A stretch of 64,000 nt of DNA from Escherichia phage vB_EcoM_005, in sequence record MK295203; one strand, 5' to 3'. How positions within the stretch are numbered: position 1 is the stretch's first letter; each line of letters opens with the position of its first letter. The notes under the pieces are model-generated. The model was not told the DNA's origin, did not search any database, and was given only the letters and a program-made list of their open reading frames with translations. Below, in pieces: positions 3,012 to 56,445 of the stretch. Position numbers and translations under genes: made by a program.

Positions 3012-3199
3012 TTAAATTATCTGTAGTAGTATTATCTATTGGCTTGTTAGTTGGATGTGCCCAGGACATCCCTGTAGTGCCTAAGCAACAACTACATCCT
3101 TCATGGCCACAACCTATTGCCAAACATAATGTTAAATGGCAGGTTAAGGTAATCGATGGTAAAGCTTGGGTTGGAATGCCATTTGAAGATTCCGAATGA
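3008..3199 (+). CDS. Small predicted lipoprotein (pseT.2-like)
   Basis: 63 aa; signal peptide with lipobox LVGC (MIKLSVVVLSIGLLVGCAQ). Confidence 0.55.
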   Translation: MIKLSVVVLSIGLLVGCAQDIPVVPKQQLHPSWPQPIAKHNVKWQVKVIDGKAWVGMPFEDSE

Positions 3200-6379: not shown

Positions 6380-6582
6380 TGCTGAGCGAACAACCTATTA
6401 CTGTAGAGCAGTTCCACGTTAAAGTTAAAGAATTTGCTCAGGCCCTGATTAATAAGGTTTCTGTACGTTTTCCTGATGCAACTCTGCGAGTAATTCAGGA
6501 ATCACCACGTGCGGTATTGGTTATCGTTAATCCTAAAGATGGTGACCAGATTACCCAGTTGAAACTTGGTAGGTCTCTCTGA
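6379..6582 (+). CDS. Hypothetical protein
   Basis: 67 aa ORF, ATGA overlap with the upstream gene. Confidence 0.45.
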   Translation: MLSEQPITVEQFHVKVKEFAQALINKVSVRFPDATLRVIQESPRAVLVIVNPKDGDQITQLKLGRSL

Positions 6583-6751
6583 AAAGGCTACTCAGTACAT
6601 CAAAGACCTTTTTAAACTGAGTGAAGATTTCCAAAGCATCCATACTTCAACATATGATGCCGTGCTGGCTACTGTTCTTCCGGTTGAAATTGGTGATCGA
6701 ATTCCGGCGGCGGTATTTTTCGATAAACAAAAATTATCTAGTGGTGATGTA

Positions 6752-7198
6752 ATGAAAGCAAGCACATACCTTCAGATTGCATATCTGATTTCTCAAGAAT
6801 CAAAATGTTGTTCATGGAAAGTGGGTGCGGTTATCGAAAAGAATGGTCGCATTATCTCTACAGGCTATAACCTCCTTAAAGAACATCGTATGGCTCACGC
6901 TGCATGGTCATCTAAAAATGAAATCCATGCTGAGCTGAATGCTATTTTGTTTGCAGCTCGTACTGGAAGTTCTATTGATGGCGCTACGATGTATGTGACG
7001 TTATCTCCGTGCGCCGATTGTGCTAAGTCTATTGCGCAGTCTGGAATTAAAACATTGGTTTATGCTGAGCTCTATGACCGAAATCCTGAAGGTTGGGACG
7101 ATATCCTCCGTGAATCGGGCATCGAAGTTATCCAGTATAATCGTACAGGTCTCCGTTCTTTGAACTGGGAATCAATTCAAAACTATTGTGGTGAATAA
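6752..7198 (+). CDS. cd: dCMP deaminase (Cd)
   Basis: MKASTYLQIAYLISQESKCCSWKVGAVIEKNGRIISTGYN...HAELNAILFAA...SPCADCA (HAE / PCxxC zinc motifs). Track ORF 6566..7198 carries an in-frame TTG-initiated 62-codon extension. 148 aa versus 193 in T4. Confidence 0.85.
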   Translation: MKASTYLQIAYLISQESKCCSWKVGAVIEKNGRIISTGYNLLKEHRMAHAAWSSKNEIHAELNAILFAARTGSSIDGATMYVTLSPCADCAKSIAQSGIKTLVYAELYDRNPEGWDDILRESGIEVIQYNRTGLRSLNWESIQNYCGE

Positions 7199-9874: not shown

Positions 9875-10042
9875 ATGTTTATGACCACTTATTTTGATAC
9901 TCGTAAAAATTTCTGTGAAGTTGTTTTCTCTAAAGCAGGTAAAGATGTTCCTGCCGACAAACAACCTACTCGTGAATCTATTAAGGCTTATGGACCTCTG
10001 ACATCTATGGTGGTAATGTTAAATCACACGGCTTTCAGATGA
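9875..10042 (+). CDS. Hypothetical small protein
   Basis: Track ORF 9842..10042 begins inside the terminator hairpin; the internal ATG (MFMTTYFDTRK) has RBS GAGGAA. Confidence 0.4.
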   Translation: MFMTTYFDTRKNFCEVVFSKAGKDVPADKQPTRESIKAYGPLTSMVVMLNHTAFR

Positions 10043-10458: not shown

Positions 10459-10810
10459 GTTAGAAATCAGAAGTATTAAGGTGAAAAATCATGAACAACA
10501 AAAACGTATATTCAGAATGTCAGGCCTGGACGCACAAAAAGCTGGACGAACTTATGCTAGAGCTCAGGACCGTGGGACGCTGTTCTGGCTTGGAACTCCC
10601 ATTTCAAGATACTCTACAGCATGGAAAGAGTTGTACGAAAATGCTTATTTTGAAGCAGCGATCCAAAACCCAGGATTTCGCGATGCGTTACAATCCACAA
10701 AAGGTAGGGTTTTAAAGCATTCTATGGCAAGCCACCTTACAGAATGTGATACAATACTAACTGAAAAAGAGTTTATCGACATCCTAAACAAATTGAGAGA
10801 TTTATTATGA
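10442..10810 (+). CDS. Hypothetical protein (30.3-like position)
   Basis: 122 aa ORF. Confidence 0.5.
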   Translation: MSKMSELEIRSIKVKNHEQQKRIFRMSGLDAQKAGRTYARAQDRGTLFWLGTPISRYSTAWKELYENAYFEAAIQNPGFRDALQSTKGRVLKHSMASHLTECDTILTEKEFIDILNKLRDLL

Positions 10811-15582: not shown

Positions 15583-15585
15583 ATA

Positions 15586-17610
15586 ATGGAAAATTTAAAC
15601 GAAGTTTTTGATAGCGATTCCGCTAAAAACTATCCAGTAATAAATCTTAAACCGGGTTCCGGTATTCCGCAGATTTTCTCTATCCAAGCACCAGGTAATG
15701 ATAACTTGGTCGCTCGTATGGTATCTTATGCGTCTCAAGGAGACGCTATTAAAATGGTTAAGCCAGGCGACAAATATGTCCACGTTATTCTAATGAGTTT
15801 GTCGAGCAAGGGTGCTCCGGCTGAACTTAAGGGCGGCCTTGGTTCTGACCCACTTGGTACACTGAATACCATTTTTGATACCGTATACGAACAAGTAAAC
15901 AAACTTAAAATGGATGCGGTTTTATTCCGTTTCCCTACCAAGAAAATGAAAGGTAAGGGCCCTACTGTCCAACGCGTATTAGCTCGTTTGGTGATGGCTC
16001 GTACCGGTGGTAAGTTTAAAGTTGTCGATGATATGTTCCAATTCAGTGGAAAACATACCTATGTTCTTTTAGTACGTCGTGGTTCTAATATCGAAGATAT
16101 CAAGGGTATGCCTGAAATTGATGCCGACCTTTATACCAAAGTCGATTCTAAAGTCGGCGAAGTTTATGTTTCTAAGAAAACAGGCCAGGCCGTAAGTAAG
16201 GTAGAAGCCGTAGCGGCATCTATTGCACAGGTTGAAGAGAAACGTACCGATAAGGCTGTCATTACTCGTACTAAGATTTCCCGTCGTATGGCGGCTGCCG
16301 CGCAGTATTCTACTGCTGAGCCTGAAACTTTGTCCCCTAAAGAATTGCAGGTTTATAACGAATTTGAAGCTTCTGTACCGGTTCACACTGCCGAAGGCCT
16401 TGAGAACGAAGGTATTGAACAGATTAGTCAGAACTTTAAAAAAGGTGCTATTACCAAAATGCGCCAGGCTTCTCAGTTTAAATCTAAGAGTGAGGACCTT
16501 GCCAACTTTAGATACACTATTGCTCTCACACACGCTTTAATGACTGATAGTAAATTTAAACTAAATTATGCTAATAGAGATAAACAAGGGTTTGAAATTT
16601 ACTCTAAAAATATGGCATTTTTTAATACAGAAGTCGATAGACTTTTAAGCGGCCTTTCGCAAATCAATACAACCAATAGTCTGGATATTATTAAGAAAAT
16701 TGTTAATAACCTGAGCGCCCGTTTTAATGGCTCCCCTTCAGAGAAAGCATCTCGAATTGCTTTCGCTATGGAAGCCGTTTATAAACTGGTTAACGATTCT
16801 ATTGGTGATGCATATGCTTATTCAGGCGAGCTCATTAAACCTAAGGACCTAACCAAAGACGAAAGCAATGCTATTATTGAATATTGTGCGGCTGAATATG
16901 CTCCTATGAACTTATTCCTTTTAGGTAAACCTGAATCCGAAAACAATACAACGGCTATTAGATTGATTAAGGATTTAGACTCAGCATTTACTAAGGGTAT
17001 TAAACTTCCTAAGGGTACTATTTTGTATCGTGGTCAGGATTTGCCATACAAAATTCTGCGTCATAATATCGATAACAAAACATTTTACTTTAAGAACTTT
17101 GTGTCAGCCTCATTAAAGCCTAACATCTTTGGTGAATTTGGTAAAAATTATATGGCCCTCGACAACCAAGCCGTTTTTGTTGGTGGTGAAGGTTCTTTAT
17201 CCTCCGCTGATGAGTTGTTTAAATTGGCTAGTGGTAGTTCATCTGATGTAGGCGAAGTCGATGATGAAGAGGTAGAATGGGAAGAAGACGAGTTCGGTAA
17301 TCCAATTGCACCTGAAGGTCCTGCGGATAGAATTGCTGAAATTGGTATGGTTATTCGAGGTGCTGAAGCAGTTAAAGTTATCGCTCCTGGCGACCTTACA
17401 GAATATGCGGAAGCTACCGTAACACCTCCTTCAGAGCTCAGCGAATCTGTTTACGATGGTGACCATTTGATGGAAACTGGTGAAGTTCGCCTGATGGATG
17501 GATTTAGTCAATTCTTGGTTAATGAATCCGTTTCTGAAAGCAACGAAGCTATGGAAATCCTTGCCGCGTCTTTGGATATCTCTTCTTTATCAAATAAATT
17601 CAAAATGTAG
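15586..17610 (+). CDS. Alt-like ADP-ribosyltransferase paralog B, divergent C-terminal domain
   Basis: 674 aa; N-terminal ~230 aa about 70-75% identical to paralog A; R (YRGQDL) and S-x-S (FVSASL) present, but no clear E-x-E at the aligned position (GAEAVKVIAP); acidic insert DDEEVEWEEDE. Confidence 0.7.
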   Translation: MENLNEVFDSDSAKNYPVINLKPGSGIPQIFSIQAPGNDNLVARMVSYASQGDAIKMVKPGDKYVHVILMSLSSKGAPAELKGGLGSDPLGTLNTIFDTVYEQVNKLKMDAVLFRFPTKKMKGKGPTVQRVLARLVMARTGGKFKVVDDMFQFSGKHTYVLLVRRGSNIEDIKGMPEIDADLYTKVDSKVGEVYVSKKTGQAVSKVEAVAASIAQVEEKRTDKAVITRTKISRRMAAAAQYSTAEPETLSPKELQVYNEFEASVPVHTAEGLENEGIEQISQNFKKGAITKMRQASQFKSKSEDLANFRYTIALTHALMTDSKFKLNYANRDKQGFEIYSKNMAFFNTEVDRLLSGLSQINTTNSLDIIKKIVNNLSARFNGSPSEKASRIAFAMEAVYKLVNDSIGDAYAYSGELIKPKDLTKDESNAIIEYCAAEYAPMNLFLLGKPESENNTTAIRLIKDLDSAFTKGIKLPKGTILYRGQDLPYKILRHNIDNKTFYFKNFVSASLKPNIFGEFGKNYMALDNQAVFVGGEGSLSSADELFKLASGSSSDVGEVDDEEVEWEEDEFGNPIAPEGPADRIAEIGMVIRGAEAVKVIAPGDLTEYAEATVTPPSELSESVYDGDHLMETGEVRLMDGFSQFLVNESVSESNEAMEILAASLDISSLSNKFKM

Positions 17611-17992: not shown

Positions 17993-18847
17993 TTATAACA
18001 GCCTCGATATTCCATTATTAATAGCACGCCCACCAAATGTATTAACCAATCCTGTTAATCCACTAGAAGCTCCTGAAAGTCTACTTAATTTGGCCACTGA
18101 AGAACTCAGCGAATTGCTCTCACTTAGCCCAGCGACGCCTTTAATAATCTTATCTTCCAACCACTCATAAGCAGCTTGTTTACCAACTGCACCCGTCTGT
18201 ACACTTCTATAAGCAAATGTAACATCAAATGAAGCAATTTGGTTATCACCGTCGTAGGATAATTCCGGTGACGAAACACCAACAGGAACACAACCATTGT
18301 CTTGAACACTATTGACCCAATCATTAAAAGCACGGTAGTTAGCAGCTTCAGAATCCATACGGAAGCTTAATACCAATGGAGAATATTCTCTTCCGGTAAT
18401 TTTGATGTTAGGCGAGTTGTGGTTCAAATCCATTTCATAGTTCAAAGTATTATCCGGGATTTTAACGGCGTGGACTAAAAGACCTGCCGTAGGATAGGCC
18501 ATATTGAAAAAATCCATCAGATATGTACCTACTTCAAACTCTCCTAGTAAGCTCTGCACAACCCTGGATGACATAGCTCCAATCAGATATTTACTTATGC
18601 CTGACTTACGAATCAACTTCTGAGTGCCCGCTGTCACTAATGTCGTAACACCTTGGGCCAACTCTCCTTGTGTAATACCAAACAAATCGGTATTCAATGG
18701 GATATTGTTAAATAAAGCTCCACCGAACTGGTCGAGGAGCGCTTGGGATTTAGAAGAAGGAACCGTAGCAAATACTACACTAAACAGGTTATTCCTCTGT
18801 AGGTCAATATTAATTGCCTGGTTCTGAAATTCTTGTAAAGTATACAT
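17993..18847 (-). CDS. 54: Baseplate tail-tube initiator gp54
   Basis: MYTLQEFQNQAINIDLQRNN...TAGTQKLIRKSG...SFRMDSEA matches T4 gp54; 284 aa versus 320 in T4. Confidence 0.85.
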   Translation of the reverse strand: MYTLQEFQNQAINIDLQRNNLFSVVFATVPSSKSQALLDQFGGALFNNIPLNTDLFGITQGELAQGVTTLVTAGTQKLIRKSGISKYLIGAMSSRVVQSLLGEFEVGTYLMDFFNMAYPTAGLLVHAVKIPDNTLNYEMDLNHNSPNIKITGREYSPLVLSFRMDSEAANYRAFNDWVNSVQDNGCVPVGVSSPELSYDGDNQIASFDVTFAYRSVQTGAVGKQAAYEWLEDKIIKGVAGLSESNSLSSSVAKLSRLSGASSGLTGLVNTFGGRAINNGISRLL

Positions 18848-21680: not shown

Positions 21681-22134
21681 TTAAGATATCCATGATTTTA
21701 AGCAATCCTTTGATAGGACCATTAGGGCCAGGGATAGCTACAGTAGAAGTTATATCGTCAGCCCATGTGGCAACAAAGGCTTTAAACGTTTTACCTTGGA
21801 ACTGGAATTCAAGCCGTTGGCAAATATAAAGGTCGTTTAAATTATACGTGAATCCGTCTTTAGTTACTTTTTCTTTTAATCGCCCGTTGAATTCTAAAAG
21901 GTGCAAAGCAGCAAAATCTGTTTCTGCTGCAGATAACCCTTTACAAATGGAGTCCATTGTCATGTGGAGGGCTTTGTAGGGGTCTTTTTCGTCCTTAACT
22001 AATTTCTGGTGCTTGAGACCTAGTTTAGGAATAGAAATTTCTTTATTACCCAGCGTTATTTTCTTGATCGGGAGTATCAGTTTTAAGTTCATTTTTAACC
22101 TTCGGTGGTTCTTCAATCTTAATAGGCTTACCAT
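21664..22134 (-). CDS. 28: Baseplate hub distal subunit gp28
   Basis: Track ORF overlaps the gp27 3' end by ~90 nt; the true start is probably the internal [11 protein letters not shown] (~22092). Confidence 0.6.
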
Positions 22135-24638: not shown

Positions 24639-24928
24639 TGAATATCAATAAAATGTATTCGGATTTAGACCCTGAAATGAGGACGTCTTGGAATAGAGAC
24701 GTCGCTAAAGCTACAGGTGCTCAGAATATCACCCCATTAATCACGGATACTATTAAGCGTAATATAGTTTCCGCTGTGCGGAACTTCGAACCTAGAATTT
24801 CTGCCCTGGCTGTAGGTGTCACACCTGTGTACGATGATAACTCGATTATCGTAACCGTTCAGTTTAGTATTGTTGATGACCCGGATACATTAGAGCAAAT
24901 TAGAATTCAGCTCTCACAGAGTGGTTAA
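24638..24928 (+). CDS. 25: Baseplate wedge protein gp25 (GPW/gp25 family), shortened
   Basis: MNINKMYSDLDPEMRTSWNRDVAKA...ERNI..SAVRNFEPRI..LAV.V.PVYDD matches the T4 gp25 ends; 96 aa versus 132, with the central segment absent. Confidence 0.75.
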   Translation: MNINKMYSDLDPEMRTSWNRDVAKATGAQNITPLITDTIKRNIVSAVRNFEPRISALAVGVTPVYDDNSIIVTVQFSIVDDPDTLEQIRIQLSQSG

Positions 24929-28231: not shown

Positions 28232-29551
28232 ATGGCTTATACCGTAACTATTGCTCCTTTGGCGGCTACGGCCGTTATTGGAGCAACAACCAATTTCACT
28301 GCGTCTGGTTCCGGTGCTGCAGCTGAAGGTACCGAATCATTTGTCTGGACCGTTGATGGCGTTCCTCAATCTTCTGTGACTGCTGCAATGGATTATGTCG
28401 CTGTTGGTCCAGCAGGCAGTAAGACTATTAAAGTTGTTGCAACCTCCACTCCGGCAGACGGCGAACCAGAAACTGCTGAGGCTGAGACAACTTTAACTAT
28501 CCAGAATAAAACAATGCCTGCTATTACATTGACTTTAGACCCTGCCTCTGTTACTAAAGAAGTGGGTCAATCTCAAGTTGTTACTGCTAACGTGACAGGT
28601 GCTCCTTCTGGTGCAACAATTGCTTATGTTTGGAAACGTAACACTAGCGTAATCCCAGGTCAAACTGGTAAAACTATTACTGTTACCGAATCAGCAGAAG
28701 CAAATTATACATTGAACTGCGAAGTTACTGTTTCTGCACCCGATTATAATAATGGCACCGCAACTAAAGGAGCTGCGGTAACTTTTGTTAAGAAAACTAT
28801 GTCAGGTGTTTCTGTTACTTTAACGCCTCCCTCAATTAGTACAGAGAAAGACTCATCTGCGCAGTTTAAAGCGGATGTAGTTGGCGCTCCTTCCGGCGTA
28901 AATGCAACTTATTCTTGGAAGAAAAATGGTTCTATTATTCCGGGCGAAAGCAGTAATATTCTTGCTGTAGATACATCTACAATAGGTTCTTACTCTATTG
29001 AAGTTTCGGTAGTCCTAACAGGTGCGGATTATAATGATTTAACCGTTACCGAAACAGGAAGTGTAGCAATTACTAAAAAGACTATGGCAGGTGTTTCCGT
29101 TACTTTAACACCCGCCTCTATTAATGTTCCTGAAGGAATCCCAGCTTCTTTTAAAGCGGATATAGTCGGCGCACCGAGTGGAGCTACTTTTGCCTATTCT
29201 TGGAAGAAAGACGGTTCTCCTGTAGTTGGCACCACGGATACTCTAGCAATCGATACAAGCGCTGAAGGTTCACAGGTTATTGAAGTTTCTGTTGTGGTTT
29301 CGGCGACTGATTATAACCCGACGACTGTTACGAAAACTGGTAATGTAACAGTCACAGCTAAAGTAGCACCTGTTCCTGACGGTGAATTACCTTATGTGCA
29401 TCCATTGCCAGTACGCAGTTATTTGCACCGATACACACTTCAAAAAATGATTACCGACTATCCAGAGGTTGATGTACAAGAATCTCGTAATGGTCGAATT
29501 ATTCATCGCACCGCTTTAGAAGCTGGTATTATATACGATTACGTTTATTAA
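28232..29551 (+). CDS. hoc: Hoc outer capsid protein with four tandem Ig-like repeats
   Basis: 439 aa; repeats carrying GAPSG(A/V)..Y.WK(K/R)(N/D)GS..PG; synteny upstream of rnlB. Confidence 0.8.
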   Translation: MAYTVTIAPLAATAVIGATTNFTASGSGAAAEGTESFVWTVDGVPQSSVTAAMDYVAVGPAGSKTIKVVATSTPADGEPETAEAETTLTIQNKTMPAITLTLDPASVTKEVGQSQVVTANVTGAPSGATIAYVWKRNTSVIPGQTGKTITVTESAEANYTLNCEVTVSAPDYNNGTATKGAAVTFVKKTMSGVSVTLTPPSISTEKDSSAQFKADVVGAPSGVNATYSWKKNGSIIPGESSNILAVDTSTIGSYSIEVSVVLTGADYNDLTVTETGSVAITKKTMAGVSVTLTPASINVPEGIPASFKADIVGAPSGATFAYSWKKDGSPVVGTTDTLAIDTSAEGSQVIEVSVVVSATDYNPTTVTKTGNVTVTAKVAPVPDGELPYVHPLPVRSYLHRYTLQKMITDYPEVDVQESRNGRIIHRTALEAGIIYDYVY

Positions 29552-33349: not shown

Positions 33350-33375
33350 GGGAGACCGAAGTCTCCCAAATATTT
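33350..33375 (+). terminator. Rho-independent terminator
   Basis: GGGAGACCGAAGTCTCCC followed by AAATATTTTT. Confidence 0.6.
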
Positions 33376-33436
33376 TTAAGAATTAATAACTTATGTTATT
33401 AAATTCCCTTAACGTAGACACGTCTAAAGTAACCAT

Positions 33437-34825
33437 TCAGACCGAGGCTGTTAACGATGTCAGGCATACCGCTCTGAATACGTTTGGTAGGAGCCTGTGC
33501 AGACGGGTCAGCGAACGGGTTGATACTGTGAAGTAATCGGAACGTGCATACTGGTCGATGTAAACGCGATATTTACCACCAAGAACACCGGCAAATACTG
33601 CTTTGGTTGTGTCAACGTTGAAACCCTGACCCAGACCTTGAGCTGCATAACTTACAGAAGTATCAACTGCAGCCAGTACGTTAACTACGTTACGGGAAGC
33701 GATGATGAAGTTACCAGCACCACGACCGGTCTGACGAGCGATTTCGGCTGCTTCTTTATCAATCTGGAACAGAAGGGCTTTAAAGCTCTCACCGGCCCAA
33801 CGAGCACCACGGATATCAATCGGGTCCTGGAAGTCAAACACACCAGCTTTAGCGCCAACGGTGTTGGTCATACCAGATTTACCAACCTGTGCAGAGTAGT
33901 TAATCCAATCGATAACTTCACGGTTGATTTCGAGCATAATTTCGGTAGCAAGGATACCGGACAGTTCAGCATCTGCATCCATACCGTGTACTGCACGAAG
34001 GTCCTGTGCCAGTTCGATAGAATAGCTTGCTTTCAGCTGACGGGATTTAGCTTCGATAACTTGTTTGTCGATGCGGAAGCCCATTTCGTTCCACGGGTTA
34101 TCCTGGGAACCGTTAAAGCCTTCCTGAAGTTCAGCGATAGAAGTAGCCATACCTTCAGCCAATTCAGCCAACTTACCAGCTTCAATCAAAGCGGTAACAG
34201 CAGCATCCAGTTTAGCGGCATCAGTAGCAGCAGCATCAACGGTTACAGCTTCAACAGCCTGGAAGTGTGCAGCACCGGTAGCTTCGAAGAAGTGAGAATA
34301 AATTTTACCAACTTCCAGAACTTTGCTTGCAGCCAGTGCTTCGAAAGATTCAGCAGCACCCTGACCAGAGAACATAGCGTTCGGAGCATACATCGGGTGG
34401 AAAGCTTCTTTAGCGCCAGCAGCGATAGGGTCTTTACCATAAACTGCGCGCAGGGCAAATACCTGGCCGGTAGGGTTATTCAGAGGCTGAACACCACAAA
34501 TATCAAAAGCAATCAGATGAGGAATAGCACGACGAACCATACCCATTACTGCAGGCCCAATCTGAGTTACAGCACCAGAAGTCTGGCCAGCTGCGATATT
34601 GGTAGCATCATAACCGTGGTCACCGCCAATTTCAGCTTCGGTCAGGAAAGAACCAAATGCTTCAGAGATTTTTTCATCACGGTATTCCGGAGCAGTCAGG
34701 ATGTCTTGTTCCTGGTTTTCGAAAATTTTAGCGATGATAGCTTGTTTAGAAGCACCTACGATTTCAGGAAGAGCTTCGTTTTCCAGCAGAGCGGACCATT
34801 TTTGAACTAATGCATTCTTTTTCAT
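33437..34825 (-). CDS. 23: Major capsid protein gp23, C-terminally frame-disrupted
   Basis: N-terminal ~425 aa colinear with T4 gp23 up to ...YIDQYARSDYFTV; the track ORF then ends in non-homologous residues, while the conserved C-terminus INPFADPSAQAPTKRIQSGMPDIVNSLGLNGYFRRVYVKGI* lies in another frame ending ~33409. Confidence 0.85.
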   Translation of the reverse strand: MKKNALVQKWSALLENEALPEIVGASKQAIIAKIFENQEQDILTAPEYRDEKISEAFGSFLTEAEIGGDHGYDATNIAAGQTSGAVTQIGPAVMGMVRRAIPHLIAFDICGVQPLNNPTGQVFALRAVYGKDPIAAGAKEAFHPMYAPNAMFSGQGAAESFEALAASKVLEVGKIYSHFFEATGAAHFQAVEAVTVDAAATDAAKLDAAVTALIEAGKLAELAEGMATSIAELQEGFNGSQDNPWNEMGFRIDKQVIEAKSRQLKASYSIELAQDLRAVHGMDADAELSGILATEIMLEINREVIDWINYSAQVGKSGMTNTVGAKAGVFDFQDPIDIRGARWAGESFKALLFQIDKEAAEIARQTGRGAGNFIIASRNVVNVLAAVDTSVSYAAQGLGQGFNVDTTKAVFAGVLGGKYRVYIDQYARSDYFTVSTRSLTRLHRLLPNVFRAVCLTSLTASV

Positions 34826-34846: not shown

Positions 34847-35563
34847 TTAAGAAATTCGTGATGCTGCGATTGCAGACAGGTCCGCGAAGGACAGGGTAGG
34901 CTTAGCGCCTTTTTCTTCAACTGCTTCTGAAATGTAATTCAGTGCCGCAGCATCGTCTACATTTTTATTTATAGCGGCTTCGGTGATTGGGTTTTCAACG
35001 TCAGTTTCAGTCAGGTCTTTAGTTGCTTCCGTAACAGCAACTTCACGCTGTACGTAATTAATATACGCGTCGCGCTTACCAACTTCTTCGAACAGACGAG
35101 CGGTTTCATCTTTCTGCTCTTGGAGTTCTTCTTCCATTTCAGCAACAACATCTACTGCTTCTTCTGGAACAACCACATTGTGTTCAACAAACAGTTCTTT
35201 CATACCCATCAACATGGATTCGAACAGTTCGGCTTTAATACCTTTATCAACAGCCAGCTGGTTTTCAGCCATCCATTCTTTAGCAACGTGGTCAAGGAAA
35301 CGACCGGCAGCTTCTTGGATTTTCTTATCGGCTTTTTCTTCAGCTTCTTCTTTATTTTTCTCTACTTCTTCTTCCGCTTTTTCAGCGATTTTAGCGATGT
35401 GAGATTCAGCCAGTTTCACGGCGTGTTGCTTGACGGTAGCTTCGAATACAGTGCCGAAAGTTTCTTTTGCTTCCGGAGAAATATTAACTGATTCGAAAAT
35501 ACTATCAAGAGCAACGGAAGCATCAATATTCTGTGCTTCGGCGATCAGTTGTTCTTTAAGCAT
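34847..35563 (-). CDS. 22: Prohead core scaffold protein gp22
   Basis: 238 aa acidic helical protein (T4 269 aa); synteny. Confidence 0.75.
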   Translation of the reverse strand: MLKEQLIAEAQNIDASVALDSIFESVNISPEAKETFGTVFEATVKQHAVKLAESHIAKIAEKAEEEVEKNKEEAEEKADKKIQEAAGRFLDHVAKEWMAENQLAVDKGIKAELFESMLMGMKELFVEHNVVVPEEAVDVVAEMEEELQEQKDETARLFEEVGKRDAYINYVQREVAVTEATKDLTETDVENPITEAAINKNVDDAAALNYISEAVEEKGAKPTLSFADLSAIAASRIS

Positions 35564-40566: not shown

Positions 40567-42402
40567 TTATACTAACGGTCCAATCAATTCATCAAAATCA
40601 GCACCAGTGCTCGTTGCAACGAAGTTCAACGTGATGTAGTTAATAGAACGAGCAGGTTTAACGTAGATATTAGCAATAAACTCATTACGGTCGATAACCG
40701 CAGGGGTGTTCACTGTAGTATCACAAACCACACGTCCTTCATAAATCCCACCAAGTGCCTTAATACCATCTAAGTACTGAGAAACTTCCATACGGAAGCT
40801 TGAACGGGTGAAGTTATCGTTCAATTCAAACAGTTTATATTTAGAGGCATCACCGATATTTTTCTTAAGCATGTTGAACAGACGGCGAACGTTAATATGG
40901 TCCATCGGAGATGGAACTTTAGTTGCAGTCTTATCACCAAACAATACGAAACCATCACCACCAGCAAAACCAACAACTGGGTTAATAGCTTCCTGGTACA
41001 TGCGGTCACGTTGGGATTGACGAGGTTCAATTGCCAATTTCAGAACGTTAAGAATCTGGCCACGGTTATAACCAGCCGGAGACATCCAAGGCTGAGACAC
41101 ATCATCCGTACGGGCACACAAACCAGCCATATCAGCCGCTAACGGAACCCAACGATTAACGTCGTTATATTTGTCATACTGATATTTATAGTTGCCGTCA
41201 ATTGCAGCATAAGTGGTGCTAATGTTCATGTTGTTGGTATCAAACAATGCTGCACCGGTACGCCAGTCGATAAGGTTATCTACTGCACGAGTCAATGGAA
41301 CGTTAACCAACAGACCTTTAGGAGGAGAAATAAATGCCAAGCAATCCTGACGTTCATCAGCAATGCTCACAACATGTTTCTGGACGGTCGAAGCAACTTC
41401 GTCACCTTCACCGTAGTTCAGCGAGGTAGCGAAGATATAGTTCGAAGTACCTTTAGCGAAATAGTCATCAAGATAAATGTTATTACCGTAAACGTCTTTT
41501 TCGCCTTCTTTGGTAGAAAGTACGACGGATTCTACGATTGCACCGTCACGGCGAACAATAATAGCATATTGGTCTTCTGTTTGAGGACCGTAGTTGAATA
41601 CTGCTTTAGCTACAGAAGCACGAGTACCGCCATTTGGATAAATATCCAACATTTTATTAGAACCAGCATCATAAGCCGCTTTAGAAACAATTTCAACTTC
41701 CAGAGTACTACCAATTTCACCAGGATAAAGGGCGACCACACCAGGCATACCAAACTGTTTAAGAGATGCTTGGAATTCCAGGGAAGTAATAGCTTCTTCA
41801 CTGTTCTCTGCTTCAGTCAACAGAATACCGGAATCGGTTACAATTTTACCGACAGTAATAGTACCAGAAACACCGGAAGAGGCAGAAGTAACTTCAGCAG
41901 TCCACGCCGGGCCGAGGTTCGGATATTGGTTAACAGAACGAGCATAAGAAATAATCTTGCCTGTAGGAATAAACACCGATAGAATTTTACCGTCTGTATC
42001 GACCGAAGTTACACGACCTTCAGATTCGATTACAGTTTGGTTATATTTGATATTAATTTTATCGCCTACCGCATAGTTAGAACCTGCAGTAGTAATAGTG
42101 GTTTGGACGTTACCTGCTATCGGAGATGCGTTTTTAGCGAATTCACGGTTAACAACACGAACAGTACGAAGGTCATTACCGTACTGGAGGAAGTTCATAC
42201 CCGACATGAAGTAATCGGCAACTTCGTTATTAGGACCTCCAAATAAGTCAACCAGTTCAACTTCATTAGTAATCTGAGTTACCTGGAAAGCAGGGCCCCA
42301 CTGGAATTTACCAACCAGCGCTGCACGACCCGTTGCGTTACGAACGACAGTACTCTGTACGGACGTTTCTTTGAGCTCAATGCCCGGTGATAATAAAGCC
42401 AT
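40567..42402 (-). CDS. 18: Tail sheath protein gp18
   Basis: 611 aa (T4 659 aa); MALLSPGIELKETSVQS... Confidence 0.88.
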   Translation of the reverse strand: MALLSPGIELKETSVQSTVVRNATGRAALVGKFQWGPAFQVTQITNEVELVDLFGGPNNEVADYFMSGMNFLQYGNDLRTVRVVNREFAKNASPIAGNVQTTITTAGSNYAVGDKINIKYNQTVIESEGRVTSVDTDGKILSVFIPTGKIISYARSVNQYPNLGPAWTAEVTSASSGVSGTITVGKIVTDSGILLTEAENSEEAITSLEFQASLKQFGMPGVVALYPGEIGSTLEVEIVSKAAYDAGSNKMLDIYPNGGTRASVAKAVFNYGPQTEDQYAIIVRRDGAIVESVVLSTKEGEKDVYGNNIYLDDYFAKGTSNYIFATSLNYGEGDEVASTVQKHVVSIADERQDCLAFISPPKGLLVNVPLTRAVDNLIDWRTGAALFDTNNMNISTTYAAIDGNYKYQYDKYNDVNRWVPLAADMAGLCARTDDVSQPWMSPAGYNRGQILNVLKLAIEPRQSQRDRMYQEAINPVVGFAGGDGFVLFGDKTATKVPSPMDHINVRRLFNMLKKNIGDASKYKLFELNDNFTRSSFRMEVSQYLDGIKALGGIYEGRVVCDTTVNTPAVIDRNEFIANIYVKPARSINYITLNFVATSTGADFDELIGPLV

Positions 42403-46204: not shown

Positions 46205-46908
46205 TTAATCATCTAAAAAAGCATCATCAAATGCTGTAGGAGGAGCATCTTCTCCTCGTCCATTAATTACAACATAAGGATGTACGAATTCAGCCGCTTC
46301 GGCATTAATCTCATTGACCTCTTCGTATTGAATGTCGGAGATATCAGCCAACCCGTCGATATTCTTAACAGGCATTAAATCAAGCTCACTGAATTCAGGA
46401 ATATTAATACCTTCATTTCTCTGTAATTCAGGACGAAGTTCTTCACCATTGTAAATGAACTTGGTAGCGGTAATTCGACGCTGGACGTTAGCACCTACTT
46501 GATAGAATGGGTCGTAAGGTTGTACCCAGTTAATTTCGAATAGGCTTATTATCCATTGGGAAATAAATCAAGTCGCCTGAAACAGGTTCAGTGCCATTGC
46601 ATTGATGTTTAAAAAGGTTAGGGTTAATTGTGATTGTTACTTCATCATTAACCATCATACCGAACTTACTGAAAGCCTATTCGGTCATTGGCATTTAACA
46701 TATTCACGTGGTATATAATAAAGCTCAATACCACGCATTTGAATAGACTCAGCAACTAAAGCATCAGCCAATGTTTGGGTATTCTCATGCTTGTAATGGT
46801 CGCCATTGGGTCATTGACAAAGGGATTGAGAATTTCGGCTTCGTTCGTATTAGCGTAACCTGTATTATTTTCTAGTTTGGCGAAAAGACTAGAATCAAAT
46901 GTCGACAT
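46205..46908 (-). pseudogene. 14: Neck protein gp14, multiply frame-disrupted
   Basis: Track ORF stops after [36 protein letters not shown]; conserved segments ([34 protein letters not shown]; [41 protein letters not shown]; [32 protein letters not shown]...FLDD*) continue in three different frames. Confidence 0.7.
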
Positions 46909-47715: not shown

Positions 47716-48839
47716 CTCGCGAAGTCGTTCTTTTTCTAAACGAGCTTCTTCAATCAATCGAATAGCCATCTACAGTGGTTCCACCTGCAAGTTGCATGCC
47801 TTGGTGTTTGGCTAAAATATTACCATTGACCTCTTTAACCAGTGCCGTAGCATAATCTTTAACCCAACGGTTATTATATGCACCAGTCTTGAAGACCAAG
47901 GTCCTCACCTACACGCATACCAGAAATACGACGTGATGGATTATCCCAAACAGCTCCAGGGCTCCATTCATTTTCGTCACACCCACCAGAGGCATATCCA
48001 TATCCTGCAGTATTTCCTACCATAGAATCAACCCCATTAAAAGAGCGAGTATAAACTTCAATTACAATAAAATCACCTTTAACAAAGTTACCCATTACCT
48101 TCAACTGTTCAGTGGCATCGTTATACCAATAATCAGGCAACAAAATATTACCATTGACTTCTTTAACCAATGCCGTCGCATAATCTTTGACCCAACGGTT
48201 ATTATATGAACCATCTTGCAAACCAAGGTCTTCACCTGCCCTCATACCTGAAATACGACGAGCCGGGTTATCCCAAATAGCTCCGGGGCTCCATTCATTT
48301 TCGTCACACCCACCAGAGGCATATCCATATCCTGCAGTATTTCCTACCATAGAATCAACCCCATTAAAAGTGGAACCAAAAGGTCTTGCATCATAGAACG
48401 ATATTGCATTAATTGTGTAAAATAACCAAGGTCGGCACCGAAGGCATTAGGCCCAAAGCTGTTACAAGAAGGTTCCAAGACCACCATTAATACCGGCCAA
48501 GCCTAATACAAAATCAGTAAACCATGGATAAGTCGCTTGGCCATCCATAGATGTTAAAGAACCCACGTTGGTTCTCAAAATTTGTGTTACCGCAAATATA
48601 TTACGGCCTTTAAGGTCAAATACACCGTTACGGAATTTTTCTTCGTCATCATGGCCTATATAAAAAGCCTGATAACCTTTGTTATAGCCGTTATAATGAT
48701 ACTCACCGTAGAGCTCCAGTGCGCGCTGGATGCAATCGTATACTTGGTCTGTAGTTACTTCAATATTTGTAATCGGTGCACCCAGGCGGCGCAGGATTGC
48801 GTCCTTGAGTTGCTTAGGGTTATATGATTCACTTGCCAT
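47672..48839 (-). pseudogene. 13: Neck protein gp13 with internal tandem duplication, in-frame stops and frameshifts
   Basis: N-terminal 125 aa (track ORF 48462..48839) match T4 gp13, then two in-frame stops; track ORF 47874..48350 holds [43 protein letters not shown] twice, 107 codons apart; C-terminus ...[28 protein letters not shown] is in another frame. Confidence 0.65.
47815..48365. repeat. Tandem duplication (~230 bp units, ~320 bp period, ~90% identity) inside gene 13
   Basis: AAAATATTACCATTGAC.TCTTTAACCA.TGCCGT.GCATAATCTTT... at ~47815 and again at ~48135. Confidence 0.7.
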
Positions 48840-51116: not shown

Positions 51117-52445
51117 TTATTCTACTTTAATAATAAAAAGAACGGACATTGTCCATGGACGTGTTTCATTGGCAATAAGACCTTCACTATTAAGTGTGGT
51201 ATAGGTAGCGGTATTACCGAAGGCACCAGCATTATCATGTTCACCAAAACCACCAGCATGTTTATGATAACGTAATGCTTGGGCTTGAACGGAAGATTGT
51301 GGGAAAGAACCAACACCATTACCTAAACGGGCTTTACCTTTACCGTCTTCTCCTCGGTTACCGGCAATATGCGGGTTAACTTCGCCTTCAGAATATCCAC
51401 CGACCATGTTAGCGCCACGAGGATATAATCCACGGAAATCTGGAATAGCACCCCACCATCCCCGACAAATAGTACCTACAGGGACGCTATCTGATAATTG
51501 GTCGTGGGTAACAACATCAACACCATTACGACGTAATGCGCCATTAACGTTTAAAGTACCCCATATTTCACCACCTGAAGTAGAAATAACGTTGGCATTA
51601 TAAGCCAGTGCCGTATTACCATCACCTTGGCCCACAGTAGTAGATAATCGAACCAATCCAATACGACCAGTATTACCTGTACGAGCTAACAAAGAAGCAG
51701 GTGTAACAGCGGCAGTGTGGTCAGTACCATTAGATACCATATCCCAACCCGCGAGTTTAATAATACCGCTTCGTTCTTCGGTGGATGTTAATGTGGCTAA
51801 TCCTGCAGGAGAAATAGCGATACCTACAGAAAGATTTCCATTACCAACTTCGGCATTAGTCGCTAAACGAACCAAACCTTCATTTGTAGTCGTTGCCGTA
51901 GAATAAACCGGTAACGCTGCTGTCGCTGCACCAATTGCTTGCGATACTTTAAGTGGGGTCATTGCGGTGGTATCATCGGTACCAGCTAATGCAGCAGGTG
52001 TAGTTGAAATCTTGATAACGCCTGTGGCGTTCTCTGTTGATAAACGGTTCTCAAATGTATAATCCATTACCGCTTTCAAAGAGGTTGCTACGATTGCAGC
52101 CTGGGGCTCTGTGCCTGCTATGGCTTCAGCGTTAGTAGCGTAACGAGTGATACCTACATAAGTTTCTGTTGCCTGAGTAGGAATATCTAAACGGGCTTTT
52201 AAAGTTGCTGGAGTCACTGCACTATAAGCGTCCAATCCGTCCATTACTTCTTGTGTGGTGGCAAGACGAATAATACCTTGGGATGTTTCTGTGGCTGAAG
52301 GAACATTACCTGTGACGCCGATTAATGAAATAGTTGCCAATGCTTCTTGAACATTAGTAATATCAGGCGGGAAATTCGACCCAGTAGGGTCGAATGATTT
52401 GAATTCCGATTTATCACTAATGTGTTTTAGTGTGTTTGTTGACAT
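51117..52445 (-). CDS. 12: Short tail fiber protein gp12
   Basis: MSTNTLKHISDKSEFKSFDPTGSNFPPDITNVQEA...; C-terminal RYHKHAGGFGEHDNAGAFGNT metal-binding motif; 442 aa versus 527 in T4. Confidence 0.88.
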   Translation of the reverse strand: MSTNTLKHISDKSEFKSFDPTGSNFPPDITNVQEALATISLIGVTGNVPSATETSQGIIRLATTQEVMDGLDAYSAVTPATLKARLDIPTQATETYVGITRYATNAEAIAGTEPQAAIVATSLKAVMDYTFENRLSTENATGVIKISTTPAALAGTDDTTAMTPLKVSQAIGAATAALPVYSTATTTNEGLVRLATNAEVGNGNLSVGIAISPAGLATLTSTEERSGIIKLAGWDMVSNGTDHTAAVTPASLLARTGNTGRIGLVRLSTTVGQGDGNTALAYNANVISTSGGEIWGTLNVNGALRRNGVDVVTHDQLSDSVPVGTICRGWWGAIPDFRGLYPRGANMVGGYSEGEVNPHIAGNRGEDGKGKARLGNGVGSFPQSSVQAQALRYHKHAGGFGEHDNAGAFGNTATYTTLNSEGLIANETRPWTMSVLFIIKVE

Positions 52446-52563: not shown

Positions 52564-53004
52564 CTATAGTATGGGAAATTGTACAACCCGGGCAATAGCG
52601 TCTAAAAACACATCATTTACTTTAGATGCAACCAATACAGATGAATCGCCAACTAAGACCTCTACAGGAAGTCCAAACACTTTAATAATAACCGGGTCGC
52701 CAAGTTCACCGCCCGAAGAAATAGAACCGGTAAATGTAATTTTATCAGATTGCTGAATAAATCCAGGTGCTCTGTTTTCTGTGGTAATAATAACAGAGTT
52801 CACAGGAAGCTCTGCTCTAAATGCAATATCATCTATTGCACTTTGAACCGTAGGAAAATAAACACCCTTCTGGGTTTGGTTTGCAGAAGGACCACCGATA
52901 GGTCGTTGGTCAGCGACAGCAGTAGGCTTGTCACTAGTGTAAGATAATTCCAAATAATCGGCTAAGCGGGATTTTAACCCGCTTTTCATTTCAGTTAAAG
53001 TCAT
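52564..53004 (-). CDS. 11: Baseplate wedge / short-tail-fiber attachment protein gp11, C-terminally frame-disrupted
   Basis: 146-aa track ORF; a further ~36 plausible codons (...IVQQPRAGYGKWEYLGNSTQSLAGGTVNGTIPLYYYKRLY*) lie in another frame and end in a TAATG overlap with the gp12 start. Confidence 0.7.
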   Translation of the reverse strand: MTLTEMKSGLKSRLADYLELSYTSDKPTAVADQRPIGGPSANQTQKGVYFPTVQSAIDDIAFRAELPVNSVIITTENRAPGFIQQSDKITFTGSISSGGELGDPVIIKVFGLPVEVLVGDSSVLVASKVNDVFLDAIARVVQFPIL

Positions 53005-54716
53005 TATGCAATCCTCAGATAAGCCGGTCCTTGTGAATCAGGGTCAACTAAACATCCACCTACAAAAATAGGGCCATCGTTATCAGCAATAAGGACTTTA
53101 TCATCGGTATTAAGTTCAGGGATATTCTCATATTTCAAATTAGCCACATGAGCACCACCGGTACCACCAGCAGTTGACTGTGGAATACCAGAAGAATCCA
53201 GATCGTTATTATTTGCATTAAACAAAGAAGCCGCGTCAGGAGACCAACCTACCAAGAACACATCAGATAAACGCTTCCATGAACCAAAGCCCATATAAGT
53301 TTTAGGGTTATTAGGGTTCACCGTGTTCTCGTAGATAGTTCCTATAGGGTAGATTAAATCAAAAAATGTTGCTGCTGTGTCTATTGTAATATTAGACGAG
53401 GCGACCGGCTCAACGTTAGGTGCAAAAGGATTATCTACATCAGTAATACGAACCTGGCCTGTTATATCAATCGATGGACCCTTAGAAATATAGATGTTGT
53501 TGGTATAATCCAAAATCTCATCAATTTCCATGGTGGTACCGATATCATTATTGTACCAAATTACTGTAAGAATATCGCCATGTTCAAAGTTACGTCCAAA
53601 TTCGATGGATTCAATCTTGTCTTCAGGAGTCAAATTAAAAATATAGTCTGATTTAGATTGAGTCCATTGACCACCGGCATTAAAACACTCGGTAGCAGTA
53701 CGACCATCAGCACCTTCACAATAAAACGAAGGAAGTCCAGCTGTACCTGCTTGATGAAGTAATGTGCTATTAAGCATAACTTGACAAGCATTTGGGTTGA
53801 TAGGGCTGTTAACAGAAATATTCAAATCAGCGGCTGATATAACATGCGAAGTATTCAAATCTCCGACGAAAGAAGAACCAGGAACAGAAACGTTTTTAGT
53901 CAATTCTGAACTTTGGATTGTTATATCACGGCGGTTATAAGAACTACGCCATTGAGCAAGCCCGTCATTATATGATTTGATAATAACAGTATCACCCGCT
54001 TCACAAGGATATTTTAAACGGATGTCTTTACCATTCAAGGCCACCAATTCACCTGGTTGAGCACCTGGAGAACCAAACTCTGCGGTAGCAGCATCAAAAA
54101 TATCATCAATACCGTAGAACAAATTGTTACCACGTTGTGAAACGCTTAAACTTGCTACGTTATAAGAAAGACCCGGGAAAACATCTAGAAAGTCTGTTTG
54201 ACCTTCAGTGGCAATAAACTGCTTAGTTGCTACAGTAGCAAGGTCGTTATTTGGAATACGGTTTACTTGCTTATTTTCAACATATTCCCAACGTCCTGGA
54301 GCACAATAAACTAATTCAAGGTCAGAGAAGTTGCGAGCAATTTCTACTTGAGTAGCTGAACCCTTAATGGTATCACCTGTGGCAGGGATTAGGGTTACAG
54401 GGTTAGCTTGCCATGAGGAATACACGTCACGTACACGGATAACAAAGTTATATTCTTCAGGGGAGCCTTTAGGAAGCTGAACGTTAATACGCCCACCTTG
54501 AGTATTAAGGGTATAGCTATGACCCATTACAGCGTTCAACAAAGCGCCATCTGCGGTAGAATGCTGTTTCCAAGCGCCTGCGGCATGTGGGTTGTTGCCA
54601 TCACCTAATTGGTAATAAAGCTCATTGAAGTTGTTATTAATTTTAAGACCACCTGCACGCAGGTAATCACCGGACCCGTCATCAACAGCGGAACCTACTT
54701 TTAAGTCTTGTTTCAT
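53004..54716 (-). CDS. 10: Baseplate wedge protein gp10
   Basis: 570 aa (T4 602 aa); synteny. Confidence 0.85.
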   Translation of the reverse strand: MKQDLKVGSAVDDGSGDYLRAGGLKINNNFNELYYQLGDGNNPHAAGAWKQHSTADGALLNAVMGHSYTLNTQGGRINVQLPKGSPEEYNFVIRVRDVYSSWQANPVTLIPATGDTIKGSATQVEIARNFSDLELVYCAPGRWEYVENKQVNRIPNNDLATVATKQFIATEGQTDFLDVFPGLSYNVASLSVSQRGNNLFYGIDDIFDAATAEFGSPGAQPGELVALNGKDIRLKYPCEAGDTVIIKSYNDGLAQWRSSYNRRDITIQSSELTKNVSVPGSSFVGDLNTSHVISAADLNISVNSPINPNACQVMLNSTLLHQAGTAGLPSFYCEGADGRTATECFNAGGQWTQSKSDYIFNLTPEDKIESIEFGRNFEHGDILTVIWYNNDIGTTMEIDEILDYTNNIYISKGPSIDITGQVRITDVDNPFAPNVEPVASSNITIDTAATFFDLIYPIGTIYENTVNPNNPKTYMGFGSWKRLSDVFLVGWSPDAASLFNANNNDLDSSGIPQSTAGGTGGAHVANLKYENIPELNTDDKVLIADNDGPIFVGGCLVDPDSQGPAYLRIA

Positions 54717-55477
54717 TATACTGGAACTCCAATAGTTTGGGTTTCTACGACCTTAATTGCAAGCCTCATAGGATTGACAGAAGAAGCGGTCGCGATAATA
54801 TAGTTTGATGTATCGAATTTAAAATCTAGGGAATAAATTTCGTCATCATCTGAAGTTTGTCCACGTTTAATAACAGCGTATTCGGTGGAATAAATCTTTC
54901 TAGCTTGGTTGTCGATAAACACAAGGTATTCTGAAGCTTTGTAAATGGTTTCGTTGGCATTCACTGCCGTAACTAAAAGTTTGACCAATGAATACTGGCC
55001 AGAATAAACCACTGGAATATCACGAGCTACAGAAGATATATTATATGTCTTATTTAATGGAACTCGTTTATCACCAAACATACTTTCAATTGAATAATCC
55101 CATACTGCAACGCCGTTTGTATCCGATACACACCATAAAAGAACTCGTGTATAAGGTGTTACGATACGCAAAGTCGAAGTTGAATGGCTTGCAAAAGTAT
55201 CCAATATACGGATTTCAAGATAATTAGTGGAAGAAATACTCCCGTTAGAGTTGATAATCTCGATTCCTTCACCGACTGCACCTTTTACAGTGGTTAATAG
55301 TAATTTCTGACCTGTTAATTCGCCTGTTAAAGCAGTTTTACGTTGGTCACCGAAAGTATTATAAATGTTGTTTAAGTCAGTGTTCAGTTTAACACCGCCG
55401 TCATAAAGAATGTCGCCGGTGCTGGCATTACCAATTTCACCGACGTCAATTAGTTCTTTACCAGTTTGCTTAATCAT
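54716..55477 (-). CDS. 9: Baseplate wedge / long-tail-fiber socket protein gp9
   Basis: KELIDVGEIGNASTGDILYDGG... matches the T4 gp9 N-terminus; 253 aa versus 288. Confidence 0.85.
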   Translation of the reverse strand: MIKQTGKELIDVGEIGNASTGDILYDGGVKLNTDLNNIYNTFGDQRKTALTGELTGQKLLLTTVKGAVGEGIEIINSNGSISSTNYLEIRILDTFASHSTSTLRIVTPYTRVLLWCVSDTNGVAVWDYSIESMFGDKRVPLNKTYNISSVARDIPVVYSGQYSLVKLLVTAVNANETIYKASEYLVFIDNQARKIYSTEYAVIKRGQTSDDDEIYSLDFKFDTSNYIIATASSVNPMRLAIKVVETQTIGVPV

Positions 55478-55540: not shown

Positions 55541-56445
55541 TAGAATTCGAAGATAATGTTAATTTCTTCTGTTTGGTCCATGGAACGAATAACCGGAGGA
55601 CGGTTTTCCATATAAATCATTTCACCTGAGTGGCGGGAGAGGTCTATAACATCATAGTACTCTTTTTCGGCTTTAATGATCGGATCGGATGGGTGAGCTT
55701 TAGCTTCTAACGGGTTAGAAATTATCGAAAGCTGTCTAAATCCTTTGTTACCAGGCAGACTAAATTCAGGGAAGTAAACTGAATCTAAGAATGCTTTAAA
55801 ACGAATGGTATTGCCTTTAATACGATAAATCAATCCATAATCGTCTTGCTGCCAAGTAAGGTTATTCTCGTATCCCCAACGTTCTGGGTCTTCGGCAATT
55901 TCTTCCGGCCATGGAACCACGATATATTCATTAGTGCAACGGTTGATACTTACATCAGGTGGAATCTCATACAAATATTCCCAGGTACACTCGGTTTTAT
56001 TATCAAGGGACAAAATAGAACATGTACCTGAGTCAGGAATATCTACACAACGATAAACCATCCAACCTGCACCAACATCAGTACGGTTTTGAGGTTGGCT
56101 ATTCGCCACTACAATTTCACCAATCTGGAAAGTAAACGGGTTAGGATAAGAGGTATCGCCCCAGTCTTTGCGTGGGACAACACAATCCAACATGCTCTTA
56201 TAAACCTTAACACAACCCATCATGTTTGCCCAGACGTCTTCTACGCCTTCAGAATCATCTACAGGATATGGTGGGGCAAAGCCTGGGTCGTTTTCGTTAT
56301 CGGCCCATGGTCGGGCCCTTCCGAAAGATACATACATAGTGTTCTGGTCTTCACCATCACCTATTGTTCTGTAAAAGTTGTACATTTTTTCCGTTCTAAA
56401 TTTTGAAGTAACAATAGAACGATAAACTACTGTAGAATTAATCAT
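55540..56445 (-). CDS. 8: Baseplate wedge protein gp8
   Basis: YRSIVTSKFRTEKM...RCTNEYIVVPWPEE...EMIYMENRPP colinear with T4 gp8; 301 aa versus 334. Confidence 0.88.
   Translation of the reverse strand: MINSTVVYRSIVTSKFRTEKMYNFYRTIGDGEDQNTMYVSFGRARPWADNENDPGFAPPYPVDDSEGVEDVWANMMGCVKVYKSMLDCVVPRKDWGDTSYPNPFTFQIGEIVVANSQPQNRTDVGAGWMVYRCVDIPDSGTCSILSLDNKTECTWEYLYEIPPDVSINRCTNEYIVVPWPEEIAEDPERWGYENNLTWQQDDYGLIYRIKGNTIRFKAFLDSVYFPEFSLPGNKGFRQLSIISNPLEAKAHPSDPIIKAEKEYYDVIDLSRHSGEMIYMENRPPVIRSMDQTEEINIIFEF

Follow-up and report, generated by a model that had tools for sequence, protein, structure and literature searches.

Can a T4-like phage carry a major capsid gene that is broken close to its 3' end? 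The question was raised by gp23, which lies on the minus strand of the window (the whole 64-kb stretch of DNA that was analysed). A frame disruption near the 3' end of this gene had been read from the letters of the window, together with the claim that no viable phage could bear it. The disruption was recovered by alignment with T4 and with the relatives and by blastn, the missing stretch being present in 110 of 110 matching records, and the claim on viability was upheld on established T4 genetics: gene 23 is essential, as are likewise the genes for sheath, baseplate, neck and scaffold of T4, and the lesion is therefore incompatible with a viable T4-like phage. The lesion is real in the character string, and it is no biological feature.

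Layout of the break in gp23

The breakpoints were mapped by nucleotide alignment with fDHCT2 and IME08, supplemented by blastn, and C6 and WG01 gave agreeing positions (Table 1). The truncated ORF (33437..34825, minus strand) encodes 462 aa. Its residues 3-433 align to residues 6-435 of T4 gp23, as far as ...YIDQYARSDYFT, and are followed by a wrong-frame tail reading VSTRSL...TASV, which comprises 29 non-homologous residues and not the 37 counted at first. The conserved C-terminus, SINPFADPSAQAPTKRIQSGMPDIVNSLGLNGYFRRVYVKGI (INPFADPSAQ...VKGI and stop), is read in another frame with its stop codon at 33401-33399, and these last 41 residues (33399-33526) align to T4 residues 481-521. The original prediction, according to which the gene is colinear with T4 and its C-terminus lies in a different frame, is therefore borne out by the two aligned stretches (T4 6-435, then 481-521). 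At the junction, 134 nt of the relatives have become 1 base, a net change of -133 nt (44 codons + 1 nt), and the missing block corresponds to T4 residues ~436-479/480. The lesion had been read as a deletion exceeding 100 nt and not as a homopolymer slip, and this was found, with the size corrected from ~127 nt to 133 nt net (134 replaced by 1); the loss of conserved residues was likewise found, their number being 44 codons + 1 nt in place of ~40 residues.

Apart from the break, the gene was readily identified. The Pfam profile PF07068 (Gp23) scored 322.1 bits against a curated cut-off of 24.4 (E = 8e-96) and was covered from position 1 to 308 of 376, as compared with 1-357 for the intact fDHCT2 protein. 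In the alignment, the mature gp23* chains (5vf3_A, 8t9r_A) begin at query residue 64, and a propeptide of ~63 aa is thus present. The head-gene neighbourhood is conserved (gp20, gp67, gp68, gp21, gp22, gp23, the segD-like gene, gp24). The 5' part of the gene is 98.5% identical to fDHCT2 DNA (98.5-98.7% for fDHCT2 and WG01), the codon changes relative to fDHCT2 are 18 synonymous and 3 non-synonymous, and once the missing 134 nt are supplied from a relative, an intact ORF of 519 aa results. With this ratio of 18:3 and a restorable ORF, the gene looks freshly functional. In sequence and gene order it matches T4 gp23 (PF07068; PDB 6uzc, 7vs5, 5vf3) and the Dhakavirus orthologues of WG01, fDHCT2, C6 and IME08, and it differs from them by the missing 134 nt and the out-of-frame C-terminus. 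Colinearity with T4 gp23 in a single frame through the C-terminus (~520 aa) was not found in the window. What the window contains is thus a typical gp23 (PF07068) of the Dhakavirus kind, whose failure to reach full length in a single frame is due to the artefact.

A query of 101 nt with the junction at its centre matched 110 phage records, all of them in two pieces spanning 234 nt (101 + 133). None of these 110 related records shares the junction, a point on which the original prediction could have failed, and all have the 133 extra nt. The 50 nt on either side of the junction are 100% identical in WG01, MX01, IME281, AnYang, IME540, PSD9 and others; because of these identical flanks and the extra 133 nt in 110 of 110 records, the junction is not a product of chance. 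The close gp23 matches were each split into two pieces as well, with the longer span on the side of the record. A 30-mer over the junction was not found in the viral, genome and metagenome contig collections, searches of E. coli genomes and plasmids with the region gave no match, and neither the truncated gp23 ORF nor the intact gp24 of the window had an exact match in a large protein collection. The missing block does not occur elsewhere in the window at the DNA or protein level (blastn, tblastn), and rearrangement and a split gene were rejected for this reason.

T4-like phages possess the gene 60 bypass as well as genes split by homing endonucleases. Against this general background, a functional recoding of gp23 (frameshift or bypass of the gene 60 kind) or its division into subunits, perhaps originating from the adjacent endonuclease gene, was considered, since a GIY-YIG SegD-like gene (32680-33339) lies 60 nt downstream of gp23, directly next to it as in T4 and IME08. 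The likeness to gene 60 is superficial, however, and consists in coding being continued in a different frame: in T4 gene 60, 50 extra nt are skipped and the protein is complete, whereas in gp23 of the window conserved coding sequence is absent. As regards split genes, sequence has been lost and none has been inserted at the break, and there is no coding gap, with at most one base between the two frames. As regards gene 60 and programmed frameshifts, bypass signals are lacking: no take-off/landing codon pair, junction stop or slippery heptamer is contained in ...GATTACTTCACAGTATCAACC..., and the frame-shifted product would still be without 44 residues that are conserved from T4 to Dhakavirus and are encoded nowhere else in the window. 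The break is conserved in 0 of the 110 related records, and similar deletions occur in ~25 other genes far from endonuclease genes. Recoding or splitting of gp23 is, on this evidence, hardly conceivable. A scar left by SegD was rejected: in IME08, where segD adjoins gp23 as well, the capsid gene is intact, and none of the other deletions adjoins an endonuclease gene.

A single natural slippage or microhomology deletion in gp23, unconnected with the rest of the window, could be suggested by the short direct repeat ATCGGT, which is present near both ends of the block in relatives. Recombination between these repeats would, however, produce an in-frame deletion of 129 nt and the junction ...TTCACCATCGGTATC..., whereas the window reads ...TTCAC-A-GTATC..., where the breakpoints do not fall on the repeat and are separated by an unmatched base. 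As the gp23 lesion has, in addition, the same form as ~25 others, an isolated event of this type is considered extremely unlikely.

Deletions throughout the window

The window is closest to C6, WG01, fDHCT2, IME540 and IME08 (94-99% DNA identity), that is, to the Dhakavirus group of T4-like phages. Comparison with C6 revealed 26 missing blocks at sharply defined points, with the window sequence continuous over each of them, and comparison with WG01, an independent genome, revealed 25, the positions and sizes being as determined against C6 (Table 1). The event of 95 nt is visible against C6 only because WG01 is without the gene concerned. Exactly 99 nt are missing in 16-17 of the 25-26 deletions; the remaining sizes are 85(-103), 95, 97, 106, 112, 123, 125, 133, 147 and 173/174 nt. 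The deletions in gp22 and gp23 were corroborated by fDHCT2 and IME08, and the length of gp22 is 238 aa in the window versus 271 aa in relatives. The boundaries of the deletion in gp14 are uncertain because its right flank is divergent. MAFFT three-way alignments were left out for some junctions at which end gaps were misplaced. The gp23 deletion is one of at least 25 similar blunt losses, for which 99 nt is the modal length, and such lesions are thus not confined to gp23.

Table 1. Coordinates of the gp23 segments and of the deletions in the window (strand given for gp23).
Feature	Position	Strand	Missing length and remarks
gp23 nt 1-1298 (codons 1-432 + two bases of codon 433)	33528..34825	minus	colinear with T4 and relatives
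gp23 deletion junction	33527	minus	one unmatched base for gp23 nt 1299-1432 of relatives; frame shifted
gp23 nt 1433-1560 (last 42 codons + TAA, 33401-33399)	33399..33526	minus	out of frame with 5' part
Wrong-frame tail of 462-aa ORF	33437..33526	minus	29 non-homologous residues + stop; DNA is the true C-terminal coding region
rnlA	2060..2062		blunt, 125 nt; gene truncated after residue 325 of 382
Small membrane-protein gene, 3' end	3192..3196		blunt, 99 nt
Boundary of two small ORFs upstream of cd	6570..6571		blunt, 99 nt
Small ORF	6733..6734		blunt, 95 nt; versus C6 only
cd (dCMP deaminase)	6870..6872		blunt, 99 nt
Small ORF	9990..9994		blunt, 112 nt; frame broken
Small ORF	10473..10477		blunt, 99 nt
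alt (ADP-ribosyltransferase) paralogue	17409..17413		blunt, 99 nt
gp54 (baseplate tail tube initiator)	18298..18299		blunt, 99 nt
gp28 (baseplate hub)	21780..21781		blunt, 99 nt
gp25	24722..24723		blunt, 99 nt; residues ~30-62 of 132-aa T4 gp25 missing
hoc, near 3' end	29415..29420		blunt, 99 nt
gp22 (scaffold)	35002..35004		blunt, 99 nt; versus C6, WG01, fDHCT2, IME08
gp18 (tail sheath)	41412..41415		blunt, 147 nt; ~49 residues after 336 of 659-aa T4 gp18 missing
gp14 (neck)	46674..46695		~85-103 nt; boundaries uncertain
gp13	48368..48371		97-nt discontinuity; adjoins 230-nt second allele (48141-48370)
gp12 (short tail fibre), first	51202..51203		blunt, 99 nt
gp12, second	51465..51467		blunt, 99 nt
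gp11	52588..52592		blunt, 106 nt; frame broken
gp10, 3' end	53017..53019		blunt, 99 nt
gp9	55297..55300		blunt, 99 nt
gp8	55983..55986		blunt, 99 nt
gp6 end + intergenic spacer + gp7 start	59276..59277		blunt, 173-174 nt
gp6	59471..59473		blunt, 99 nt
gp5, first	62238..62243		blunt, 123 nt
gp5, second	63004..63006		blunt, 99 nt
gp5, third	63230..63231		blunt, 99 nt

When C6 was compared with WG01 by the same procedure as a control (~67 kb), 0 such events were found in either direction, and the window contained no extra blocks of that size class relative to the references. The same type of lesion, with one modal length, is thus seen at many unrelated loci and in the sequence of the window only; the ends are blunt, and the loss is always from the window. 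No consistent microhomology was found at the block ends, most junctions sharing no bases, and the deleted blocks have no k-mers or positional motif in common. Their mean GC content is 0.41 (0.40 for the region), their starts fall in all three codon phases, and some of them cross gene boundaries. A coverage drop-out driven by composition and a design at the codon level are unsupported because no pattern of GC, motif, codon phase or position within genes was found. The junctions are not significantly clustered, with 11 of 28 located in the last 13 kb (own count), which is marginal.

Essential structural genes are struck, namely gp54, gp28, gp25, gp23, gp22, gp18, gp14, gp13, gp11, gp10, gp9, gp8 and gp6, together with gp12 (twice), the gp6/gp7 boundary and gp5 (three times). 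Non-structural or accessory genes are struck as well (rnlA, the membrane-protein gene, several small ORFs, cd, alt and hoc). The frame is broken by losses that are not multiples of 3 in gp23, gp11, rnlA and one small ORF, and gp13 and gp14 are broken too. Losses of 99, 123 and 147 nt remove 33-49 codons in frame. The break in gp23 was noticed because 133 is not divisible by 3 and the frame is broken, and the 99-nt losses, being in frame, were missed on ORF reading. In gp18 and gp25, the solved T4 chains align on either side of a missing internal stretch of ~49 and ~33 residues, respectively; with the T4 structures taken as outgroup, the missing segments are ancestral and belong to the interior of essential proteins. 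The alignments of these two proteins are printed with the top matches, a 656-aa relative for gp18 and a 136-aa relative for gp25, and the T4 numbering given in Table 1 is separate from that of these relatives.

Origin of the deletions

We know of no mutational or selective process that would leave the essential genes of a lytic phage with ~25 blunt deletions, all in one direction and of a fixed modal length (99 nt). On this ground, and because a genome of this kind could not form particles, the break in gp23 and the other deletions are regarded, with a probability of roughly 90%, as a non-biological artefact of sequence construction and not as a property of a replicating phage. A natural genome with a functional gp23 would have lost blocks of nearly fixed length at many joins during assembly or stitching. 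In assemblies of mixed populations by de Bruijn graphs, ~k bases may be lost or duplicated at contig joins through errors in the handling of overlaps, and the likeliest course of events would be that overlaps of ~99-100 nt were mishandled at unitig or contig joins during de Bruijn-graph assembly of a mixed-strain phage sample. The overlap may have been trimmed twice, or a short variant "bubble" piece may have been dropped. An isolated variant site would then cause a loss of exactly k, and a cluster of variants a loss of k plus the span of the cluster, a model that would fit the spike at 99 nt, the longer losses of 106-174 nt, all of them short of 2k, and the junction bases, which often differ from the references.

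The resemblance to join errors of this type in mixed populations is drawn from the pattern and not from a demonstrated history; it comprises the recurrent one-sided blunt losses of modal length 99 nt, all below twice that length, and a misplaced allele in gp13. At the last-mentioned site, gp13 nt 567-796 are present as a second, WG01-like allele of 230 nt, which is located 97 nt off its proper place and adjoins a C6-like copy of the same segment, to which it is ~92% identical. A single unmatched base is present at ~10 of 24 junctions, with a background divergence of only 4-5%. The misplaced allele and the unmatched junction bases are hints of a mixed-strain, overlap-based origin. The model has its weak points. 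Sizes below 99 nt (95 and ~85-103 nt) need additional natural small indels, at most junctions the flanks are without a visible strain switch, and the junctions are, as mentioned, not significantly clustered. No consistent flip between C6 and WG01 was found at the junctions, and chimerism at the joins is therefore unsupported.

Excision of ~100-nt blocks in silico, whether deliberate or accidental, is the chief alternative and would look much the same. In this case, blocks of ~100 nt would have been cut after assembly, or masked stretches or runs of N removed or collapsed to one base, with overlapping blocks yielding the longer sizes; the deletions would still be an artefact, and the cause alone would differ. 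Several observations agree with such an excision: the fixed modal length of 99 nt, or of 100 nt replaced by 1; the other sizes, none of which reaches 198 nt, as expected where two blocks overlap and merge; a placement without apparent relation to GC, motifs, codon phase or gene boundaries; a window without N; and the junction, the truncated gp23 and the intact gp24 being unmatched in the DNA and protein collections searched. Yet ~8 of 25 events exceed 100 nt, compared with ~10% overlap expected for random blocks (own estimate), the misplaced second allele of gp13 is left unexplained, and so are the sizes of 95 and 97 nt, which fit the join model imperfectly too. The odd base at the junctions varies (C, G or T), whereas conversion of N to another letter would give one fixed letter, and runs of N were not found in the window. 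Excision in silico is accordingly taken to be possible, at somewhat less than even odds.

Genuine deletion in real DNA would imply that the sample contained defective T4-like genomes, for instance non-viable variants kept going by a helper during mixed infection, or phage DNA in decay. The sequence as given does carry the gp23 loss, and a mixture of strains is suggested by the gp13 region, so that a second strain could in principle supply intact proteins. At least 25 independent blunt events in one direction, mostly of exactly 99 nt and without microhomology, would be needed, however, and at least 17 essential structural genes would have been damaged at once; we are aware of no mutational process that produces a fixed deletion length of 99 nt. 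Decay is not seen elsewhere, in the codon changes of gp23 (18:3) or in the gp17, gp19, gp21 and uvsW proteins, which are 100% identical to those of C6. The backbone is that of an otherwise healthy, natural, T4-like genome of the Dhakavirus type, and genuine deletion is very unlikely. The particular case of a defective T4-like population with dozens of losses of ~33 codons in structural genes, physically real and propagated by an intact co-infecting relative, is rated as even less probable. If true, it would represent a system resembling defective interference in a T4-type phage, with the second allele of gp13 as a hint of the second strain.

Use of the record and remaining features

With at least 25 deletions distributed over the window, what was taken for a defective capsid gene becomes a damaged sequence record, and the biological interest of the locus is thereby removed. 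The value of the observation lies in quality control and not in biology. As it stands, the 64-kb window is unfit for gene calling, the construction of protein families, structure prediction and claims of gene loss: no fewer than 17 essential structural genes are frame-shifted or have lost at least 33 codons, and most of the lesions are in frame and escape inspection of the ORFs. Other genes of the window that appear short, truncated or frame-disrupted (gp11, gp13, gp14, rnlA, gp22 and gp18) probably have the same trivial cause. Should the sequence stem from an assembly, public or in-house, the repeated signature of 99 nt would indicate a fixable fault at the joining stage.

Two homing-endonuclease-like ORFs that flank gp19 are shared with IME540, to which they were matched as a single piece with 99.3% identity. 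Endonuclease-like ORFs are abundant in the window.

Blunt losses and a shifted frame

When the window was compared with the close relatives C6 and WG01, about 27 junctions were found between 2061 and 63231, each a blunt, one-sided deletion, 99 nt being the commonest length. Most of these deletions keep the frame and escape ORF reading. Any gene called "short" or "truncated" within the window is suspect. A small indel, additional to these losses, is present in the frame-shifted denA-like ORF (annotated in WG01 as "denA gene product"): residues 1-59 of the C6 protein are matched in frame 3 and residues 49-136 in frame 1, with a 1-nt insertion relative to C6 at about 211.

Duplicated sequence in gp13 and gp14

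The start of the neck gene gp14 (first ~33 codons) is present in two copies, and an endonuclease-like ORF is joined in frame to the upstream copy. The arrangement could represent a real insertion of an endonuclease gene with duplication of its target, or it could be another effect of the assembly. The 3' region of gp13 is likewise represented twice, by two diverged alleles about 92% identical to each other, of which the C6-like one has its frame broken by a 1-nt insertion. This pair suggests that reads of more than one strain were merged.

Accessory genes and additional ORFs

The hoc gene encodes 423 aa in the window versus 282 aa in C6, its greater length being due to additional copies of the repeat unit; it has also undergone a 99-nt loss close to its 3' end (~29417). 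C6 and WG01 each have three paralogues of the ADP-ribosyltransferase gene alt where the window has two, which amounts to about 2.1 kb net. The difference has the look of natural variation in copy number, not of the 99-nt artefact, the recurrent blunt loss judged to be assembly or processing damage.

Six ORFs of about 190-260 aa each are extra relative to C6 and WG01. By appearance they look like homing endonuclease genes; Pfam support is weak, lying under the curated cut-offs, and for three of them the Pfam search returned zero matches. An "HNH endonuclease" annotated in a Bp7 record, in a stretch matching the window, is probably the counterpart of ORF 39702-40385. The pair of endonuclease-like ORFs on either side of gp19 is shared with IME540 (99.3% identity).

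Coordinates of the features described, with database or relative matches
Feature	Coordinates	Match
denA-like ORF	33-441	
alt paralogues	13498-17607	
hoc	28232-29503	
gp14 start, both copies	46813-47668	
gp14 start copy	47668-47570	C6, 100%
gp14 start copy	46908-46813	87.5%
gp13 3' region, both alleles	47570-48370	
gp13 allele, WG01-like	48141-48370	WG01, 98.7%; in frame
gp13 allele, C6-like	within 47570-48137	C6, 94%
Homing-endonuclease-like ORF	417-1091	no Pfam match
Homing-endonuclease-like ORF	32680-33339	SegE GIY-YIG, sub-threshold; IME08 equivalent annotated SegD
Homing-endonuclease-like ORF	38558-39139	SegE GIY-YIG, sub-threshold
Homing-endonuclease-like ORF	39702-40385	no Pfam match
Homing-endonuclease-like ORF	45608-46195	no Pfam match
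Homing-endonuclease-like ORF (joined to gp14 start)	46895-47668	I-TevI DNA-binding domain and NUMOD3 motif, both sub-threshold (Pfam)
Hairpin	33350-33367	fDHCT2, IME08

Hairpin downstream of gp23

Between gp23 and the SegD-like gene, which are convergent, lies a GC-rich hairpin (GGGAGAC-CGAA-GTCTCCC), probably a bidirectional terminator, that is kept in both phages of the nucleotide alignment of the gp23 region.
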